Part shown: positions 4,801 through 52,907 of the stretch, in pieces
Numbering within the stretch: the first letter of the stretch is position 1
How the letters are laid out: every line of letters begins with the position of its first letter
Assembly: GCA_016181765.1 (NCBI GenBank)
Contig: JACOYR010000001.1
Coordinates: 16,847-80,846, forward strand
Reading direction: 5' to 3'
Length of the DNA stretch: 64,000 bases
From: Parcubacteria group bacterium
Lineage (GTDB): Bacteria > Patescibacteriota > Patescibacteriia > UBA2169
Position numbers and translations under genes: made by a program
Notes under the pieces: model-generated
Told to the model about the DNA's origin: nothing
The model's database searches: none
What the model saw: the letters and a program-made list of their open reading frames with translations, nothing else

Positions 4801-5517
4801 TTATAATAGATACTTTCCGCGCTCCTTGTCGCTGATGACTACCCCGTCCTCCAAGGTGATGACGCGGCGGTGCAGGTCGTTGACGATTTCGCGGTTGTGG
4901 GTGACCAGGAGCACGGTGGTGCCGAAGTCGTTGATTTTCTTTAAAAGCTCAATGATGTCGCGGGAGTTGATGGAATCCAAATTTCCGGTGGGCTCGTCCG
5001 CAACCAGGATCTTGGGCCGGTGCGCCAGGGACCGCGCCACCACCACGCGCTGCTGCTCCCCGCCTGAAATCTGGTGCGGAAACCGGCTCATCTTGCCCTC
5101 AAGCCCCACGATGCGCAGGACCTGGGGAACAATTTCCTGTATCTTGCCCCACTCCTCGCCCCCCACTTCCAGGGCGAACGCCACGTTCTCAAACAGAGTC
5201 TTGCGCGGCAGGAGCTTGAAATCCTGGAACACCACGCCGATCTGCTTCCGCAGGATCGGGATTTCCCGCTGTTTGATGTCTGTGATGTCCCACCCCCCGA
5301 TGACAATGCGGCCCTTACTCGGCCGCTCTTCGGCCAGAATGAGCTTGATGAGCGTGGTTTTGCCGGTTCCGCTCTGGCCCACAATGGACACGAACTCCCC
5401 GGGCTCAATCTTGAGGCTTATGTTTTTGAGGGCTGTCTGCTGGCCCGGGTATATTTTGCTTACGCTTTTGAATTCAACCATTGCGCGTGCCGCTAATTGA
5501 CGAAATCCCTCCGACAT
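4801..5517 (-). CDS. ftsE: Cell division ABC ATPase FtsE
   Basis: Walker A GQSGTGKTT, signature LSGGEQQRV, Walker B ILVADEPTGNLD. Start ambiguous: ATG 5517 lies 5 nt after an extended -10 (TGCTATAAT, leaderless); the FtsE-like N-terminus MVEFKSVSKIY begins at 5478. Confidence 0.85.
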   Translation of the reverse strand: MSEGFRQLAARAMVEFKSVSKIYPGQQTALKNISLKIEPGEFVSIVGQSGTGKTTLIKLILAEERPSKGRIVIGGWDITDIKQREIPILRKQIGVVFQDFKLLPRKTLFENVAFALEVGGEEWGKIQEIVPQVLRIVGLEGKMSRFPHQISGGEQQRVVVARSLAHRPKILVADEPTGNLDSINSRDIIELLKKINDFGTTVLLVTHNREIVNDLHRRVITLEDGVVISDKERGKYLL

Positions 5518-5573
5518 ATTACATTATAGCATATAATCCTAACATGACGAAGAGGCTGTGCGCGTCAAACTAG

Positions 5574-5649
5574 GCCACCTTAGCTCAGCTGGTAGAGCAA
5601 TGCTTTCGTAAAGCAGAGGTCCCGGGTTCGATCCCCGGAGGTGGCTCCA
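5574..5649 (+). tRNA. tRNA-Thr (anticodon CGT), CCA encoded
   Basis: GCCACCT...AGGTGGC acceptor, D-arm GCTCAGCTGGTAGAGC, anticodon loop TTCGTAA, T-arm CCGGGTTCGATCCCCGG. Confidence 0.85.
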
Positions 5650-5650
5650 C

Positions 5651-5724
5651 GCGGGATTAGTACAATGGCAGTACGCTAGCTTCCCAAGCTAGAGAAGCGG
5701 GTCCGATTCCCGTATCCCGCTCCA
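5651..5724 (+). tRNA. tRNA-Gly (anticodon CCC), CCA encoded
   Basis: GCGGGAT...ATCCCGC acceptor, anticodon stem-loop CTAGC-TTCCCAA-GCTAG, T-arm GCGGGTCCGATTCCCGT. Confidence 0.85.
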
Positions 5725-5730
5725 ACCCGC

Positions 5731-6651
5731 CTACCGCACGAGCCTGAAAATCGCGAGCTCGCGTTTTTGCTGTTCCACCCACTCGTCAAAATCAAAACCC
5801 CGCACCAGAATGTGGCGGGCCCGGGCTTTTTGCGCGACCCTGTTTTCGTCATACAACACATCTTCCAGCTTGATGATGTGCCAGCCATAGGATGACTTGA
5901 CCGGATCGCTGACCTCGCCTATCTCCATGCCAAAAATCGCCTGCTCCAATGCGGGTTCCAAAGCTCCGCGGCCAAAGTACCCCAAATCGCCGCCCTGGTG
6001 CGCGGTGGCCGCGTCATAGCTCTCCTCGCGCGCGAGTTGCGCGAAGTCAGCGCCCTCTTCCCGCGCGAGAACCACCAAGGACAATGCTTGCTGTTCCAGC
6101 TCCTCATCACTCTTGCCGAACTCGGAGAGCAGGGCGGTTTTGACTTTCTGCTGAAGCAAGAACGGCCGCAGGACCCGCTCAATGAACTGATCGTCATTCC
6201 AGCCGTAGGCCTCCTGCACGAACGCGTGGATTTCCTCCTGGCTCTCGGGGCGCTCGCGGAGCCGCTCCCACTCCAGGTACACCTCCTGGTCCGCGACCGT
6301 AATGCGCTGCTTGCGCGCAAAGATGCGCACCACCTTTTCGGCAATCAGTTTATTCACGAGCCGCTCGCGGATTTCTTGCGGGTCCGGAATCCCGAGAAGC
6401 ACGTTCTTGTTCTCGCGCTGGAAATCCCAGTACCGGTACAATGCCGCAAGATCGGAAAGGTACGTGTGCAGGGGAATGATTTCCCAATCAACAAGAATCG
6501 CGGGGTACGGAATCACGCGCGCAACAGCGTACGCGGCCCGGGACTGCCACTGGAACCGGTAAACGGCAATGCCGCTTATGAATACAAACGCTGCGAACGC
6601 CATTGCTCCGGCAATAACAAAGCGCCGCGCGTTGTTCTTTGCCTTTATCAT
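5731..6651 (-). CDS. Parvulin (PpiC)-type peptidyl-prolyl isomerase, SurA/PrsA-like, membrane anchored
   Basis: N-terminal TM segment. C-terminal parvulin motifs HILVRGF...GGDLGYFGRG...GWHIIKLED. Confidence 0.75.
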   Translation of the reverse strand: MIKAKNNARRFVIAGAMAFAAFVFISGIAVYRFQWQSRAAYAVARVIPYPAILVDWEIIPLHTYLSDLAALYRYWDFQRENKNVLLGIPDPQEIRERLVNKLIAEKVVRIFARKQRITVADQEVYLEWERLRERPESQEEIHAFVQEAYGWNDDQFIERVLRPFLLQQKVKTALLSEFGKSDEELEQQALSLVVLAREEGADFAQLAREESYDAATAHQGGDLGYFGRGALEPALEQAIFGMEIGEVSDPVKSSYGWHIIKLEDVLYDENRVAQKARARHILVRGFDFDEWVEQQKRELAIFRLVR

Positions 6652-33245: not shown

Positions 33246-34214
33246 TTATATAAATTTAGGCTTTCTGTAACGCGCTGTTTTTCTCTCTCTAATAGCCTCG
33301 CGGTATGTTTGCGAGATTAAATCCAAAAGCAGCGAAAACTCGCTCGTGGTCGCCAAAGAAATATCTATGCCAACCACCGTGCCCTCCCAATTGGGAAGAT
33401 GAACCTCGCTCGAATGACGGTCGCGCAACGGGTCAGCATACAATTTAATCTTCTTAATCTTCGACGATTGTCTCTTTAACAGTTTGTACATTGCCGTGCC
33501 GCTGTAAATCACGAAAAAATCCCGATTTACGTTAGCAATTGATTTGATAAAGAATAATCCAGCTCCGGCATTTTGTTCTGTCCCGCCTTCTTTTCTCGTC
33601 GTACCAGTAATGCCAGGAGTTAACGCAAGGCGTATTGCGTCAAGATCATCTTTTGGATTATACGCATTATTAATAGTCTTCCAGATGCCGACCCCGGTAT
33701 CGGCTATTCCGATTCGGATAGTATTGCTCTTTTGAAAATATTGCGCCGCAACAAGAGCACCGTACTGTGACAAAGAGTGCTCAAGCACATTACGCACCAA
33801 CTCGCTGATAATATACCGTATAGGTTCCGCATGTTTTGGACTAAGGTGCAAAAGAGGCGTCATCTCGGTGATAAATTTTTTCAATTCCTCGCTGGTGTTA
33901 ATTTGAGTTAAAGGTATGAATCGTCCGGCTGGTTCATGTTTTTTTATTACCATGTCCGACTGAACACCTAAAAATTTAAAAAGCCCCATGCGTTCCAAGT
34001 AGTGTTTTGACCGCGCAGTAAATTTTTCACACGTAATATATGAGGGGTCTAACTCAAGGCCAAGTGCCGCAACCATTGCCAAAACAACTGGATGAATGGA
34101 TATCCAATTCGGATTCGCGGTAATCTCAAGCTTCCCCTTGTTTGATGGGTCAAAACTCTTAAAAAAAGAATCAATATTACCCAAAAAAGCGCTATTTGGC
34201 AAATGTATCTTCAT
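33246..34214 (-). CDS. GHKL-superfamily ATPase (anti-sigma-factor/RsbW-like kinase fold) with about 120-aa N-terminal extension
   Basis: N-box ISELVRNVLEHS, G1 GIADTGVGI, G2 GTTRKEGGTEQNAGAGLFF. 4-nt spacing to downstream STAS-like gene. Confidence 0.7.
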   Translation of the reverse strand: MKIHLPNSAFLGNIDSFFKSFDPSNKGKLEITANPNWISIHPVVLAMVAALGLELDPSYITCEKFTARSKHYLERMGLFKFLGVQSDMVIKKHEPAGRFIPLTQINTSEELKKFITEMTPLLHLSPKHAEPIRYIISELVRNVLEHSLSQYGALVAAQYFQKSNTIRIGIADTGVGIWKTINNAYNPKDDLDAIRLALTPGITGTTRKEGGTEQNAGAGLFFIKSIANVNRDFFVIYSGTAMYKLLKRQSSKIKKIKLYADPLRDRHSSEVHLPNWEGTVVGIDISLATTSEFSLLLDLISQTYREAIRERKTARYRKPKFI

Positions 34215-46786: not shown

Positions 46787-47086
46787 TTATGCCAACTCTT
46801 TCATCTTGCCGGTTGAGTACTGGTGCAGAACGGACGACACCAGTGTCTGGTAGGGCAAACCCTTCTCCTGCGCCCGCACTTTCAGCGCGTGTAAATCCCG
46901 CTCCGAGATGCGGATGTTGATGTTGCGCTTCTTGATCAGCGTTGCGCGCGCGGCGGCCACGAGCTTCTGCTTTTCTTCTTCAAGATTGGGCACGCTCTTA
47001 AACTCGCCTCTGTTATAGGCGTCCAGAAGTTCCTTCTCTTCCCTATCTAATGATTCGTAATATTTTTCCTCTAGATCCTGTGGCAT
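46787..47086 (-). CDS. brnA: BrnA antitoxin (ribbon-helix-helix, CopG-like)
   Basis: 99 aa; C-terminal RISERDLHALKVRAQEKGLPYQTLVSSVLHQY RHH motif; paired with BrnT. Confidence 0.7.
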   Translation of the reverse strand: MPQDLEEKYYESLDREEKELLDAYNRGEFKSVPNLEEEKQKLVAAARATLIKKRNINIRISERDLHALKVRAQEKGLPYQTLVSSVLHQYSTGKMKELA

Positions 47087-47089
47087 AGA

Positions 47090-47386
47090 TTATCTCTTAG
47101 TGATATACTTTTTTGTCGCCTTTCGGCTTGGTATGATGGTTTTTAAAAAAATTTTCTCATCATCTTCCACATACGGAACAAGGTACGCGTATCCGCCAAC
47201 TTCCACGACGAACATTTTCTGGTTGGGATACTTTTTCTGATTCAGGTGCCGAATAATGTCCAGCACCCGTTCGTTTTTATTTAGTAGCGGAACCATGTCA
47301 TCAAAACAGACTCCATGCCGAATTCTTAATTGCGAATTTTTGTCTTTGTTCCACTGGTAATCCTTCATGTACACATAATATGACAA
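47090..47386 (-). CDS. brnT: BrnT toxin (DUF497 ribonuclease)
   Basis: 98 aa; WNKDKNSQLRIRHGVCFDDMVPL and FVVEVGGYAYLVPYVEDDEKIFLKTIIPSRKATKKY typical of BrnT. Confidence 0.7.
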   Translation of the reverse strand: MSYYVYMKDYQWNKDKNSQLRIRHGVCFDDMVPLLNKNERVLDIIRHLNQKKYPNQKMFVVEVGGYAYLVPYVEDDEKIFLKTIIPSRKATKKYITKR

Positions 47387-49338: not shown

Positions 49339-49429
49339 TGATTGGATGATAGGGCAAAAAGGTACCTTTAGGCTTTCCTTATGATGTCAGTATAGCATAT
49401 CAACATTTGTACCGAGATTACTCTCTTAG

Positions 49430-49568
49430 GACTTACGCGTTTGACAGAAATAGTCGTCATTCTGGAGGCTTTGTACTCAAAGCCGATAGAATCTCCGTGA
49501 AAAACGCATAGATTCTATCGCTCAAGAGTACTTTCGCTCCAGAATGACGTCAAACGCGTAAGTCCTAT
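49430..49568. repeat. Long imperfect palindrome (about 140 nt) forming an extended hairpin at the boundary of the AT-rich island
   Basis: GGACTTACGCGTTTGAC/GTCAAACGCGTAAGTCC (17 bp), GTCATTCTGGAG/CTCCAGAATGAC (12 bp), GATAGAATCT/AGATTCTATC (10 bp), centre CCGTGAAAAACGC. Confidence 0.65.
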
Positions 49569-49570
49569 CT

Positions 49571-50221
49571 CTAACAAATTTGCACATTCCCATCGCCTAG
49601 GCACACTTGGTGCTTCAGATCCCATAATAAGTATCTAATGTAGTGAGTTTCTTCAGGCGATGATTCGCTACTCAAAAGCTTGTGTATATTTCGTGCAAAA
49701 AACTTCTTTGAATTTCTACTGGCTTGAGCGCTTGAATTTCCCTTGAGTAAGGAGATAGCCACTTGGTTTGAGGGCTCAAGGAAAAGTTCGGCCACTGTAT
49801 CTTGATGGGGGCGTGAAATCTGATGCTCATCGTACCAAAAAATAAAATCCGCATCGTACCCTATATACGAAAAAGTGCCGGACTTTACGCTTTTAGGTCC
49901 TAACTCAACTGCTGATTGACACGATAAAGCGTATACAACCCTAGATTCAAAAATATCCTCATTAACACCCGCCCGAACTAGAATCTTATCATCTTGTCCG
50001 GTGACATGACCTGGACCACCATGACCATTTATAAAAACAAATGAGGGCTTGAGCTTCTTGACTCTGCTTTCAAATTCTTTTTTATTTGCTTTCTCGCCAT
50101 GGAGATCAAATAGCCTAAATCCTTTTGCATTGATAATTTTTATTACCTTGCCAGCCCATGCAGATAAATACCGAGTTGGAATATCATGATTAGGCCTCGT
50201 CACTAAGCACGCTATACTCAT
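49571..50221 (-). CDS. Hypothetical protein with minimal caspase-like (CHAT/C14-like) His-Cys dyad; AT-rich island gene 3
   Basis: 216 aa. Hydrophobic strand plus H (PSFVFINGHGGPGH) and hydrophobic strand plus C (VVYALSCQSA) about 25 aa apart, reminiscent of the caspase/hemoglobinase fold. GC about 40% vs window about 57%. Confidence 0.5.
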   Translation of the reverse strand: MSIACLVTRPNHDIPTRYLSAWAGKVIKIINAKGFRLFDLHGEKANKKEFESRVKKLKPSFVFINGHGGPGHVTGQDDKILVRAGVNEDIFESRVVYALSCQSAVELGPKSVKSGTFSYIGYDADFIFWYDEHQISRPHQDTVAELFLEPSNQVAISLLKGNSSAQASRNSKKFFARNIHKLLSSESSPEETHYIRYLLWDLKHQVCLGDGNVQIC

Positions 50222-50474
50222 ACAGTTCGCCAGTTTTTAATGACTGCAAAAAATTCATATCAATTTCAATCATTTTTTTGCCTATCTCGTCTCCATCGCT
50301 CACATGCTGGATTAAATCATCTCTGCTAAAAGACCCCTCGCCGCCAATCGACATACTAAAACCAACAGGCATCGCACCGAGACGCGCCTTAACCAATTCT
50401 CGAACATCCTCATCACGCTCTTCCTGTTCCGTCTGTCCGCTCTGTTGTGCATTTTGTGTTTGTGTCGTACTCAT
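50190..50474 (-). CDS. Hypothetical small acidic protein; AT-rich island gene 2
   Basis: 94 aa ORF; overlaps gene 3 start by 32 nt and gene 1 stop by 4 nt. Confidence 0.45.
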   Translation of the reverse strand: MSTTQTQNAQQSGQTEQEERDEDVRELVKARLGAMPVGFSMSIGGEGSFSRDDLIQHVSDGDEIGKKMIEIDMNFLQSLKTGELYEYSVLSDEA

Positions 50475-50665
50475 ATAATTTGAAGTTCGACGAGTTTGTT
50501 AAAAATTTTTTTACCAAGCTCGGTATCATTACTGATCTCAACATAAGCAACATTCCATGTTATGGGAATGCGCCTGTCATTCTCTCGCTCAACCGTCAAG
50601 ACAATATCATCCCGAATATTAATGGGAAGGTTTGCGTAAACTTTCAAAAATCTTGCCTTGTCCAT
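50471..50665 (-). CDS. Hypothetical small protein; AT-rich island gene 1
   Basis: 64 aa ORF, first gene of the three-gene minus-strand cassette. Confidence 0.4.
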   Translation of the reverse strand: MDKARFLKVYANLPINIRDDIVLTVERENDRRIPITWNVAYVEISNDTELGKKIFNKLVELQII

Positions 50666-50928
50666 AGATCTCTAATTTCTTTTATTATACCACATTCTCA
50701 ACATTCACGCCAACACCGTACCACTCCAATCTTGGAAGGTCAAATCATTTATGTATCCCTTCCTCTTTCATCATACCACCTAAATACTTTCTATCCTATA
50801 CACGCCACTCGGCGAGGCAAGCACCAAGGCCAGCGTGCCCGCCGATGAGGTGGATGCCGAGTTTACCCGCCGGAGAGAGGCGGGCTTACCTTGATCCTCG
50901 CGAGAGGCGAGGCTGATTTGACAACTAT

Positions 50929-50957
50929 TGACTTTTTTATTAAAATATGCTATCATT
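50929..50957 (+). promoter_or_regulatory. Sigma70-type promoter (TTGACT-17-TATCAT with TGc extension) for 51005..51709
   Basis: TTGACT 50929-50934; TGCTATCAT 50949-50957; SD AAGGAG then GTG start. Confidence 0.55.
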
Positions 50958-51004
50958 ATATTCACAAAAACCAACCATAATGCACCTACACAAGGAGAAA
51001 GACA

Positions 51005-51709
51005 GTGAGCACCAAATCGCTCCAGAAGTTGTACGACGAGGGATTCTTCAAGCCCGGACACTCGGAAGCAGTAGATGAGTGCATCACAAACATCGTCTTG
51101 CTCAACACCGACCAAGTGTTCCGCACGGGAGTGCCGCGCAGGATCCCCCGCCCAGCACTCCCCGCAGAAGAATTCACGTTTCACTGGTCTCGCTTCGTGG
51201 GCGCGGTTACGGCCAACTTCCCGAACATTGAGCCGTACAACCTGACGGCCATCACCACGCTCATGGTCGCGGAGAAGCGCCACCAGGAAGAACTGTTTCT
51301 CTGCCAGCTCATCGAGGCGCTCTGCCCCAGCTGCGAGTCGATGTGCTTCCTCGGACACGCCTACTGGCACCTCGAGGATCGCTACCTCGCGCTGCAGTGC
51401 TACCAGGAAGCGCACCGCCGCAGTGAGCGCTTCTGCAAGGAGCGCAAACTCGGGCCCGACAACCCCAACTGGCTGGACGCGGGGGATTACCTCCGCTACG
51501 CCGCCGAGTGCCAGCTCGCGCTGGACATGCCCGGCGACGCCCTCACGTCGCTCGTGCGCTGCGTACAGATCTTCAAAGCAGCAGGCAAGTACGGCACCTT
51601 CAAGCGCGAGGATCTGACCAGGATCCACCGGTCCGTGATGGAAGCCGCCGGATGGAATGCCGTCGGCGATCTGTGGGAAGTTCCCACAGAAGCACCTACT
51701 GGCGCGTAG
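51005..51709 (+). CDS. Hypothetical protein (GTG start), Cys-containing, TPR-like helical repeats; GC-rich orphan between AT-rich segments
   Basis: AAGGAG SD 8 nt before GTG; followed by strong terminator. Confidence 0.55.
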   Translation: MSTKSLQKLYDEGFFKPGHSEAVDECITNIVLLNTDQVFRTGVPRRIPRPALPAEEFTFHWSRFVGAVTANFPNIEPYNLTAITTLMVAEKRHQEELFLCQLIEALCPSCESMCFLGHAYWHLEDRYLALQCYQEAHRRSERFCKERKLGPDNPNWLDAGDYLRYAAECQLALDMPGDALTSLVRCVQIFKAAGKYGTFKREDLTRIHRSVMEAAGWNAVGDLWEVPTEAPTGA

Positions 51710-51734
51710 AATCACTCAGCGCGCCACCCCCGAT

Positions 51735-51770
51735 CCCCCGCACGCTATCGCTAGGTGCGGGGGTTTTTAT
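51735..51770 (+). terminator. Intrinsic terminator (CCCCCGCAC...GTGCGGGGG then TTTTTAT)
   Basis: 9-bp GC stem. Confidence 0.65.
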
Positions 51771-51854
51771 ACAAAAACACCCCGCCGCCGGTCCGCCGCC
51801 TGCTCGCCGAGGAGGCGGGGAGAGGCGGGTTAATCTGGTCCATGATATAATAAA

Positions 51855-52313
51855 GTGCGTATGCACATAGAAATAGACCAATCCGGAAAAATTGAGCACA
51901 CCAGCAAAACCACGGTTATCGCCTACGCAAACGGCAGTTCAAGAAGCTTGCAGATAAGCGCGAGCGAAAAACAAAAACTCATACGAACGATGAAAACAAA
52001 CAGGCATCCCAAGACCACATACGTGTACACCATATTTGCAACGCTCATATTTATGCTTCTGCGCGACATGCGCGCAAGCGATTCCACAAGCGTCACCATC
52101 GACAGGGAATACCCGGGCAAAGAACCAACTATCAAAAACTTCCTGCTGCAGCTCTACCGGAAAGCCCATAAAAAATCTCCGGCCATACGGTTTGACACTA
52201 TCGGGAAGAAGAGTATGGCGCACAAAGCCGCGCTTGCGGTGTTCCAAAATAAAAAGCGCCCTGACATCATAGTCACGGCCCAAGACGCCTTACAGACGCT
52301 GTACGAGAGATAA
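51855..52313 (+). CDS. Hypothetical protein (AT-rich)
   Basis: 152 aa ORF with TM segment; followed by hairpin ATCCCGG-tccag-CCGGGAT. Confidence 0.4.
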   Translation: MRMHIEIDQSGKIEHTSKTTVIAYANGSSRSLQISASEKQKLIRTMKTNRHPKTTYVYTIFATLIFMLLRDMRASDSTSVTIDREYPGKEPTIKNFLLQLYRKAHKKSPAIRFDTIGKKSMAHKAALAVFQNKKRPDIIVTAQDALQTLYER

Positions 52314-52565: not shown

Positions 52566-52907
52566 TCATCCTGAAATCTTTTCAATCGTAGAAGGCACAA
52601 TATATATATCCCAATCCGACATACCGATCACATCAACAATTTCATACCTGATTTTTACCGGCAATCCAACTTTCTTGAATTCATTCGGCAATTCATAAAT
52701 AGCCGACGTATCTGAAAAAGAAAGACGTTCTTTTTTTACCGGAATACCAAGAAAGGTGCGGCTGGTTTCAATCCCCCACCAACCACCATCTTGATCTATA
52801 TACTGAATCGTTCCAACGCGCGTCTTAGTCTGCATCGGGTCTATCACCCAAAATGCCCCATACATTATCAATCCAACTATTGCAATAACCAAAATCTTTT
52901 TTATCAT
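52566..52907 (-). CDS. Hypothetical membrane-anchored protein
   Basis: 113 aa, N-terminal TM; 4-nt overlap with rarA. Confidence 0.45.
   Translation of the reverse strand: MIKKILVIAIVGLIMYGAFWVIDPMQTKTRVGTIQYIDQDGGWWGIETSRTFLGIPVKKERLSFSDTSAIYELPNEFKKVGLPVKIRYEIVDVIGMSDWDIYIVPSTIEKISG

Follow-up and report, generated by a model that had tools for sequence, protein, structure and literature searches.

A widespread three-gene module of Patescibacteria encoding a compact protein of the caspase-haemoglobinase (clan CD) fold and two small acidic partners

A 64,000-nucleotide (nt) stretch of the genome of a Parcubacteria group bacterium (GenBank assembly GCA_016181765.1, contig JACOYR010000001.1, positions 16,847 to 80,846 of the forward strand), referred to throughout as the window, was analysed around a cassette of three small genes, here termed A, B and C. 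The product of gene C was found to have the fold of clan CD peptidases with an invariant His/Cys dyad, and the three genes were found side by side in almost every locus recovered. The open reading frames (ORFs) lie on the minus strand in tight overlap, and their placement, lengths of 64, 94 and 216 amino acids (aa) and overlaps of 4 and 32 nt in the ORF list were exactly those given in an earlier interpretation made without database searches (the sequence-only reading):

50471-50665, minus strand: gene A, 64 aa, from the ORF list
50190-50474, minus strand: gene B, 94 aa, its start overlapping the stop of A by 4 nt
49571-50221, minus strand: gene C, 216 aa, its start overlapping the stop of B by 32 nt

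The cassette had also been described as AT-rich, and its 1095 nt measured 41.0% G+C (GC) against 56.2% for the whole window. It was the lowest-GC 1.1 kb of the window; in a scan of the 64 kb, just 0.28% of 1095-nt segments matched its AT-richness. GC at third codon positions (GC3) was 0.36 for C, 0.43 for B and 0.38 for A, compared with 0.68-0.81 for the neighbouring genes, RarA (0.70) among them.

Protein C has the caspase-haemoglobinase (clan CD) fold. It forms an alpha/beta/alpha sandwich around a central, mostly parallel beta-sheet, and the domain carrying the dyad is followed by a bundle of helices towards the C terminus and by a last strand. Both motifs, FVFINGHGGPGH and VVYALSCQSA, were present: FVFIN-G-H67-G ends strand 3 (residues 61-65) and VVYAL-S-C101 ends strand 4 (residues 95-99). 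His67 thus lies in N-G-H-G and Cys101, 34 residues further on, in S-C, each preceded by a hydrophobic strand and in the order and placement canonical for clan CD. Among 339 distinct C sequences, Gly66 was conserved in 338 of 338 aligned positions, His67 in 337 of 338, Gly68 in 338 of 338 and Cys101 in 337 of 337. Asp141, 40 residues after the cysteine, was conserved in 334 of 336. The dyad is invariant across this set, and C is therefore not a pseudo-protease. No signal peptide was found in C, the first strand of which starts at residue 4, and no extra domains were present. The closest structural relatives of C included two defence proteases, SAVED-CHAT and the Craspase TPR-CHAT.

In gingipain K (Kgp) of Porphyromonas gingivalis, His444, Cys477 and Asp516 have been named (PMC13266019). 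The spacings of the equivalent residues in C were 34 from His to Cys and 40 from Cys to Asp, against 33 and 39 in Kgp. Asp516 forms the floor of the Lys-binding S1 pocket of Kgp; because the spacing of Asp141 is so similar, Asp141 may line an S1 pocket in C, and Lys or Arg may be favoured at P1 in the manner of gingipain K. Arg9 and Arg137 (the 'TRP' motifs after strands 1 and 5) were considered as a basic S1 pocket of caspase type, an idea that was rejected: Arg9 was present in only 288 of 335 sequences, and position 137 varied by eye (R, H, K, N, L) in an alignment of 34 sequences. Gingipains R and K (MEROPS C25, clan CD) otherwise differ from C, to which they are 9-13% identical. They are secreted virulence proteases that exceed 400 aa and combine several domains, among them a prodomain, an Ig-like domain and a C-terminal domain for type IX secretion, whereas C is a bare 216-aa, predicted cytosolic protein with two operon partners.

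Searches of Pfam, NCBIfam, PADLOC and PHROGs returned nothing for A, B or C of the window. Pfam searches with 34 C, 28 B and 35 A homologues, and profile searches of Protein Data Bank (PDB) sequences, gave nothing above noise; a match of C to aspartate aminotransferase (E 0.029) and one of B to a designed protein were judged spurious. Within the clan, neither window C nor any of the 34 members matched PF00656 (C14), CHAT (PF12770), C13, C11 or C50 even at E <= 10, and PF01364 (C25) was likewise unmatched, its best result being one of the 34 members at E 0.08. No Pfam family of the clan matches C, which therefore represents a sequence family new to an established clan. By sequence, it would be a new peptidase family of clan CD, set in a new three-gene architecture. 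Orthocaspases and metacaspases (C14) are distinguished by a p20/p10 linker architecture and a Q/D-A-C-x-G motif, whereas C carries S-C-x-S and has no such linker. C ranks among the smaller stand-alone proteins of clan CD, although the sequence-only description of its scaffold as far smaller than any known was overstated: the C80 cysteine protease domains of MARTX and TcdB are about 200-250 aa.

Relatives of C numbered in the hundreds and were full-length at about 215 aa, with 47-59% identity among the 120 best listed; the organism names on the listed relatives were all of Patescibacteria (candidate phyla radiation, CPR) lineages. A profile search of 1.84 billion representatives gave 2,281 clusters at E <= 1e-3, of which 367 reached E <= 1e-30, and the family was accordingly sized at about 2,300 clusters at 50% identity. 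The best 150 representatives were all stand-alone, with no fused domain; their lengths were mostly about 200-220 aa, the remainder including shorter, partial sequences. The nearest homologue of C in 5.8 billion proteins was only 58% identical, and identity across CPR phyla ranged from 40 to 58%.

The two partners are acidic and C is basic (family median isoelectric point (pI) 9.0). In A (family median pI 5.4), twelve positions were invariant in 35 sequences (F6, Y10, N12, L13, P14, R18, W37, N38, V39, A40, E43 and T48), mean column identity was 54%, and the protein ended in a hydrophobic ...L-x-I-I with essentially no tails. Its model consisted of a helix, a beta-hairpin and two further helices, for which no structural neighbour was found and no match to a helix-turn-helix, ribbon-helix-helix or other DNA-binding fold; the model shows a novel fold, a claim limited to A. 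B (family median pI 5.1) was less conserved, with a core of LVxARL...SIGSxGxF...GDxIGKKI...LRSLKEG between Lys/Glu-rich N-terminal and C-terminal tails that varied at both ends, and with a near-invariant Lys80 just ahead of a conserved Gly. Neither A nor B had a family match in Pfam or a sequence match in the PDB. With hhalign the two profiles lined up in register, though without significance (E 0.02-0.03, probability about 2%), and A and B were not established as paralogues. The order of acidic A and B (pI 5.4 and 5.1) before basic C (9.0), with gaps or overlaps of a few nt, is the layout of a type II toxin-antitoxin system; the likeness of the cassette to such systems is one of layout only.

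Conservation of the cassette was examined in 84 loci, 80 from species-representative genomes and 4 from metagenomes, in which six-frame ORFs were searched with hidden Markov models of A, B and C. The three genes were adjacent, in the same order and on the same strand, in 83 of the 84, the exception being cut short by a contig end. Median spacing was +2 nt from A to B and -8 nt from B to C, as expected of translational coupling, and the genes are probably coupled in this way. No other flanking gene family was common to more than six of 82 loci, and no conserved neighbourhood beyond the cassette was found; linkage to RarA was seen in the window and three other loci only (L001, L010 and one more). 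In one Patescibacteria metagenome-assembled genome (MAG; locus L083) the cassette was duplicated at 118-1257 and 5484-6623, each copy being exactly 1,140 nt, 5.4 kb apart and 90% identical, and the duplication held nothing outside A, B and C. The linkage in 83 of 84 loci, the unshared flanks and this exact duplication together indicate that A, B and C form one self-contained unit. A caspase-like His/Cys dyad in C and two partners of no recognisable family had been put forward in the sequence-only reading, and both were borne out, as was the co-occurrence of the genes elsewhere for which it proposed a search; none of the observations named there as counting against it (no caspase-like fold, unconserved His and Cys, genes never found together) was made.

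Carriers included Parcubacteria/Paceibacterota, Microgenomates, Gracilibacteria, Peribacteria, Saccharimonadales and many named candidate phyla, and in one case (L072) the cassette lay in a complete Levyibacteriota chromosome of 0.76 Mb. Carriers labelled as other than CPR were seven Omnitrophota (L059, L061, L066, L067, L070, L071 and L073), a Latescibacter single-amplified genome (L060) and a 'Pacearchaeota' MAG (L080). In a neighbour-joining tree of C, the Omnitrophota and Latescibacter sequences formed one clade nested among those of the CPR, a pattern suggestive of a single transfer among ultra-small lineages; L080 may owe its archaeal label to a binning error. The MAG CAYZOB01 held two divergent cassettes on different contigs (L019 and L051), placed in different parts of the C tree, which reflect either paralogy or transfer, or a chimeric bin.

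The AT-richness of the cassette was not peculiar to the window. Cassette GC was below that of the flanks in 65 of 75 loci. In 53 of 66 loci (Wilcoxon p = 1.4e-8) the GC3 of C fell short of the average for the flanking genes, in 28 it was below that of every one of them, and the deficits were largest in GC-rich hosts. Between the window and L001, the four-fold degenerate sites of C were saturated (29% identical), and their GC was 0.45 and 0.53, respectively, against 0.88 and 0.85 for RarA. Low GC in 65 of 75 loci that persists at saturated synonymous sites is therefore not a mark of recent arrival here; it is a property of the family and not of an insertion into the window. Either the AT composition is actively maintained, for example because rare codons limit dosage or because a weakly structured mRNA aids coupling, or the locus has been repeatedly overwritten from AT-rich relatives.

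Mobility and defence context were assessed against IMG/VR, INPHARED and PLSDB, in which no viral, phage or plasmid relatives of the cassette were found, and a viral or plasmid origin was rejected. In PADLOC-DB v2, A, B and C had no match at E <= 1. Across about 40 loci, the 149 genes nearest to the cassette were mixed, with no recurrent family, and included enolase, RpoB, SecA, PheRS and aldolase; genes of mobile or defence type were few (AbiEi twice, Bro-N twice, RhuM once), and no PADLOC family occurred more than four times, which is not the pattern of defence islands. CHAT proteases (SAVED-CHAT of type III CRISPR and of the cyclic-oligonucleotide-based anti-phage signalling system, CBASS; TPR-CHAT/Csx29 'Craspase') carry SAVED or TPR sensor domains, whereas C has no sensor. 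No CRISPR or CBASS genes lay near the cassette, no match to PF12770 or PADLOC was obtained, and the distribution was not the patchy one of defence islands. Within the window, 2.2 kb separate the cassette from RarA/MgsA, and the cassette is RarA-linked in L001 too; RarA is 49-51% identical between the two and C about 54%, and C therefore diverges no faster than its housekeeping neighbour. The cassette appears to have been retained for long in the chromosomes of CPR and Omnitrophota, and does not resemble a recent, fast-evolving defence island. Two proposals of the sequence-only reading, a horizontally acquired operon and a defence module in an island, were not supported: the cassette is widespread and chromosomal, shares RarA synteny with L001 and has family-wide low GC, it gave no PADLOC match and no viral or plasmid copies, and its neighbours are unconserved and in part housekeeping genes.

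Two further features adjoin the genes of the window:

49427-49567, no strand assigned: near-perfect hairpin of 141 nt, starting 4 nt past the stop codon of C
50684-50713, minus strand: candidate promoter-like site upstream of gene A from a consensus scan, with -35 TTGGCG, an 18-nt spacer and an extended -10 TG-TATAAT

The promoter-like site lies about 19 nt before the start codon of A; the number of such sites in the region was not above chance, and it is listed as a candidate only. In the hairpin, perfect 19-nt arms (49427-49445 and 49549-49567) flank a 40-nt imperfect pair. Folded as RNA it gave -78.4 kcal/mol (z = -10.3), had no U-tract, was unique within the window and matched no Rfam family. 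Of 80 other loci, just 3 had a similar structure 3' of C, and L016 carries an analogous long hairpin downstream of its own C gene. The roughly 140-nt palindrome that had been noticed beside the cassette is thus real, but it is local to this genome and was rejected as a module boundary or conserved RNA (no Rfam match, a single copy in the window, not kept downstream of C elsewhere). It may act locally as a transcript-end or stabilising structure, and may be a terminator or the remnant of a palindromic element. The GC-rich short repeats reported on the 5' side were not recovered, just short two-copy matches being found there. That side, between the cassette and RarA (50780-52313), is a GC-rich block (0.60-0.66) with long ORFs on both strands, of which a plus-strand ORF of 234 aa (51005-51709; GC3 0.81, weak TPR matches) is probably the real gene. 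The block is absent from the syntenic L001, where a VanZ-QueH gene occupies the spot.

Other parts of the window were noted in passing. A 113-aa ORF at 52566-52907 (minus) overlaps the RarA stop codon by 4 nt, has a GC3 of 0.38 against 0.70 for RarA and no Pfam match, and is a second abruptly AT-shifted small gene. At 46787-47386 (minus), 2.2 kb from the cassette, a BrnT-like toxin (98 aa, PF04365, E 8e-5) is adjacent to a CopG/BrnA-like antitoxin (99 aa, PF12441, E 3e-7), and the toxin gene is likewise AT-shifted (GC3 0.48). The sole other patch of the window that is equally AT-rich (0.41 GC), at 33246-34214 (minus), encodes a 322-aa ORF with a weak match to histidine-kinase-like ATPases (HATPase_c_2), and another lower-GC patch holds a stand-alone 147-aa ORF of RNase H/RVT_3 type (24750-25193, minus). 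The 1209-aa product of 55872-59501 (minus), which contains a GH9 glycosyl hydrolase domain, has only a 139-aa C-terminal domain in common (40% identity) with a SpaA-like surface protein of 1210 aa beside the L001 cassette (L001 6839-10468); this domain may be a common anchoring or sorting domain.

We propose that C is a cytosolic clan CD endopeptidase gated by, or directed at, the co-produced acidic proteins A and B. A and B would be made in step with basic C through translational coupling and would bind it, either keeping it inactive or chaperoning it in the manner of a securin or a prodomain, or else serving as its dedicated substrates; strict co-occurrence, coupling and charge complementarity are all consistent with such a complex. 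His67 would act as the general base and Cys101 as the nucleophile, cleavage after Lys or Arg would be favoured by the Asp141 pocket, and the output would be a partner-gated proteolytic switch. We hold this reading as a whole, the catalytic competence of C included, with about even confidence. Securin and the gingipain prodomains offer analogies for A and B, the binding of which to C is likewise a prediction. Securin has no sequence relation to either protein, and separase, from eukaryotes, exceeds 1,000 aa and carries a large regulatory domain made of helices. A bacterial parallel is HetF of Anabaena (caspase-HetF class of clan CD), which cleaves PatU3 after Arg117 (PMC9457339): here a clan CD protease governs cell division and differentiation by cutting one small protein after Arg (PMC9457339). 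HetF differs from C in being large and membrane-associated at the divisome, its substrate is not an operon partner, and no homology to A or B is known. The pair is a precedent for a non-defence, single-substrate role and for one dedicated small substrate.

Several points weigh against this proposal. The assignment of Asp141 to the S1 pocket was made from the sequence spacing rather than from a superposition, the case for the complex of A and B with C is made wholly from co-occurrence, coupling and charge, and both the activity of C and the process that it would control are predictions. A search of the literature on CPR together with caspase, gingipain, CHAT or orthocaspase found nothing relevant to the C family. 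The neighbour-joining tree follows taxonomy in part only, with Uhrbacteria and Microgenomates scattered; because of this scatter and of the Omnitrophota clade, some horizontal transfer of the cassette is likely. The AT-rich, rare-codon composition, the variable context, the tandem or double copies of some genomes and the acidic-upstream, basic-downstream layout would also fit a selfish or defence module resembling a toxin-antitoxin system.

A bolder form of the partner-gated proposal, which we advance tentatively, is that the cassette is a lineage-wide 'minimal caspase' switch, not described before, of ultra-small, host-dependent bacteria, namely CPR and Omnitrophota. The new clan CD family would be held by its two unrecognised small partners as by a securin-like latch, release of which would start regulated proteolysis that decides cell fate, be it dormancy, division or suicide on infection or loss of the host, and an AT-rich, rare-codon sequence kept by selection would hold dosage low.

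The strongest competing explanation, though in our judgement a doubtful one, is a three-component toxin-antitoxin or abortive-infection (defence) system, in which a toxic protease C would be restrained by A and B until phage or stress removed them and C cleaved essential host or phage proteins. A larger basic enzyme preceded by small acidic genes, with overlaps of 4-8 nt, codons that are AT-rich and rare relative to the host genome, duplication of the cassette as a unit in L083, the kinship of C to SAVED-CHAT and Craspase TPR-CHAT and the BrnT/BrnA pair 2.2 kb away would all suit this explanation, as would a variable context with occasional AbiEi, Bro-N, RhuM, GmrSD or restriction-modification methylase neighbours. 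It sits poorly with the lack of a PADLOC match for any of the three proteins, with top representatives that have neither a sensor domain nor any other addition and reach about 220 aa at most, and with housekeeping neighbours among which defence families reach at most 4 of 149. Neither viral nor plasmid carriage was seen, and the cassette is kept in a 0.76-Mb genome. Its divergence is slower and more uniform than is usual for a conflict system, with identities of 40-58% between phyla, a mean column identity of 54% for A and a C that diverges like RarA.

Prp protease matures ribosomal protein L27, and a dedicated maturation system on this model, or on that of enzymes that remove prodomains, was also considered. 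Here A and/or B would be the functional products, in a small heteromeric complex, and C a processing peptidase that trims, for example, the variable N- or C-terminal tails of B at the conserved ...LRSLK-EG boundary. The conserved core of B with tails of variable length, and its near-invariant Lys80 before a conserved Gly, would fit a Lys/Arg pocket built on Asp141; the conservation of A, with 12 of about 60 positions invariant, exceeds what an inhibitor would require, and co-occurrence is strict. The cleavage site is a guess, however, and a function of A and B in their own right a supposition; A has essentially no tails to remove, and genes for processing proteases are often dispensable or unlinked whereas linkage here is absolute. 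We regard this explanation as unlikely.

That C is a transpeptidase or ligase (cf. legumain-type ligases and the glycosylphosphatidylinositol (GPI) transamidase) attaching A, B or a fragment of them to targets as a small tag is very improbable, given that neither partner has a ubiquitin-like or other tag fold, that the module has no activating-enzyme gene and that the ...L-x-I-I end of A and the variable tails of B are unlike known conjugation termini. A recent foreign insertion into the window genome, with donor composition not yet ameliorated, would account for the lowest-GC 1.1 kb, for GC3 of 0.36-0.43 beside neighbours at about 0.70 and for flanks made up of a long palindrome and a GC-rich block missing from the syntenic relative, but we give it scant credence in view of the RarA-linked position shared with L001 (RarA 49%, C about 54% identical), the AT shift of C in both genomes despite saturated four-fold sites, the same shift in 53 of 66 loci, and a nearest homologue of 58% identity among 5.8 billion proteins, hence no apparent donor.

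Most genes of the CPR (Patescibacteria) are functionally unassigned and the genomes are tiny; conservation of a housekeeping-like kind over many CPR phyla and Omnitrophota makes it likely that this module, which the profiles of Pfam, NCBIfam, PADLOC and PHROGs all miss, matters to the biology of its carriers. Its persistent AT and rare-codon bias in GC-rich genomes is itself an evolutionary signal, and advises caution in equating low GC with recent transfer. The partner-gated reading would add a very compact family to the clan of caspases, gingipains and separases, and would give a simple bacterial model of partner-gated proteolysis by a caspase-fold enzyme.

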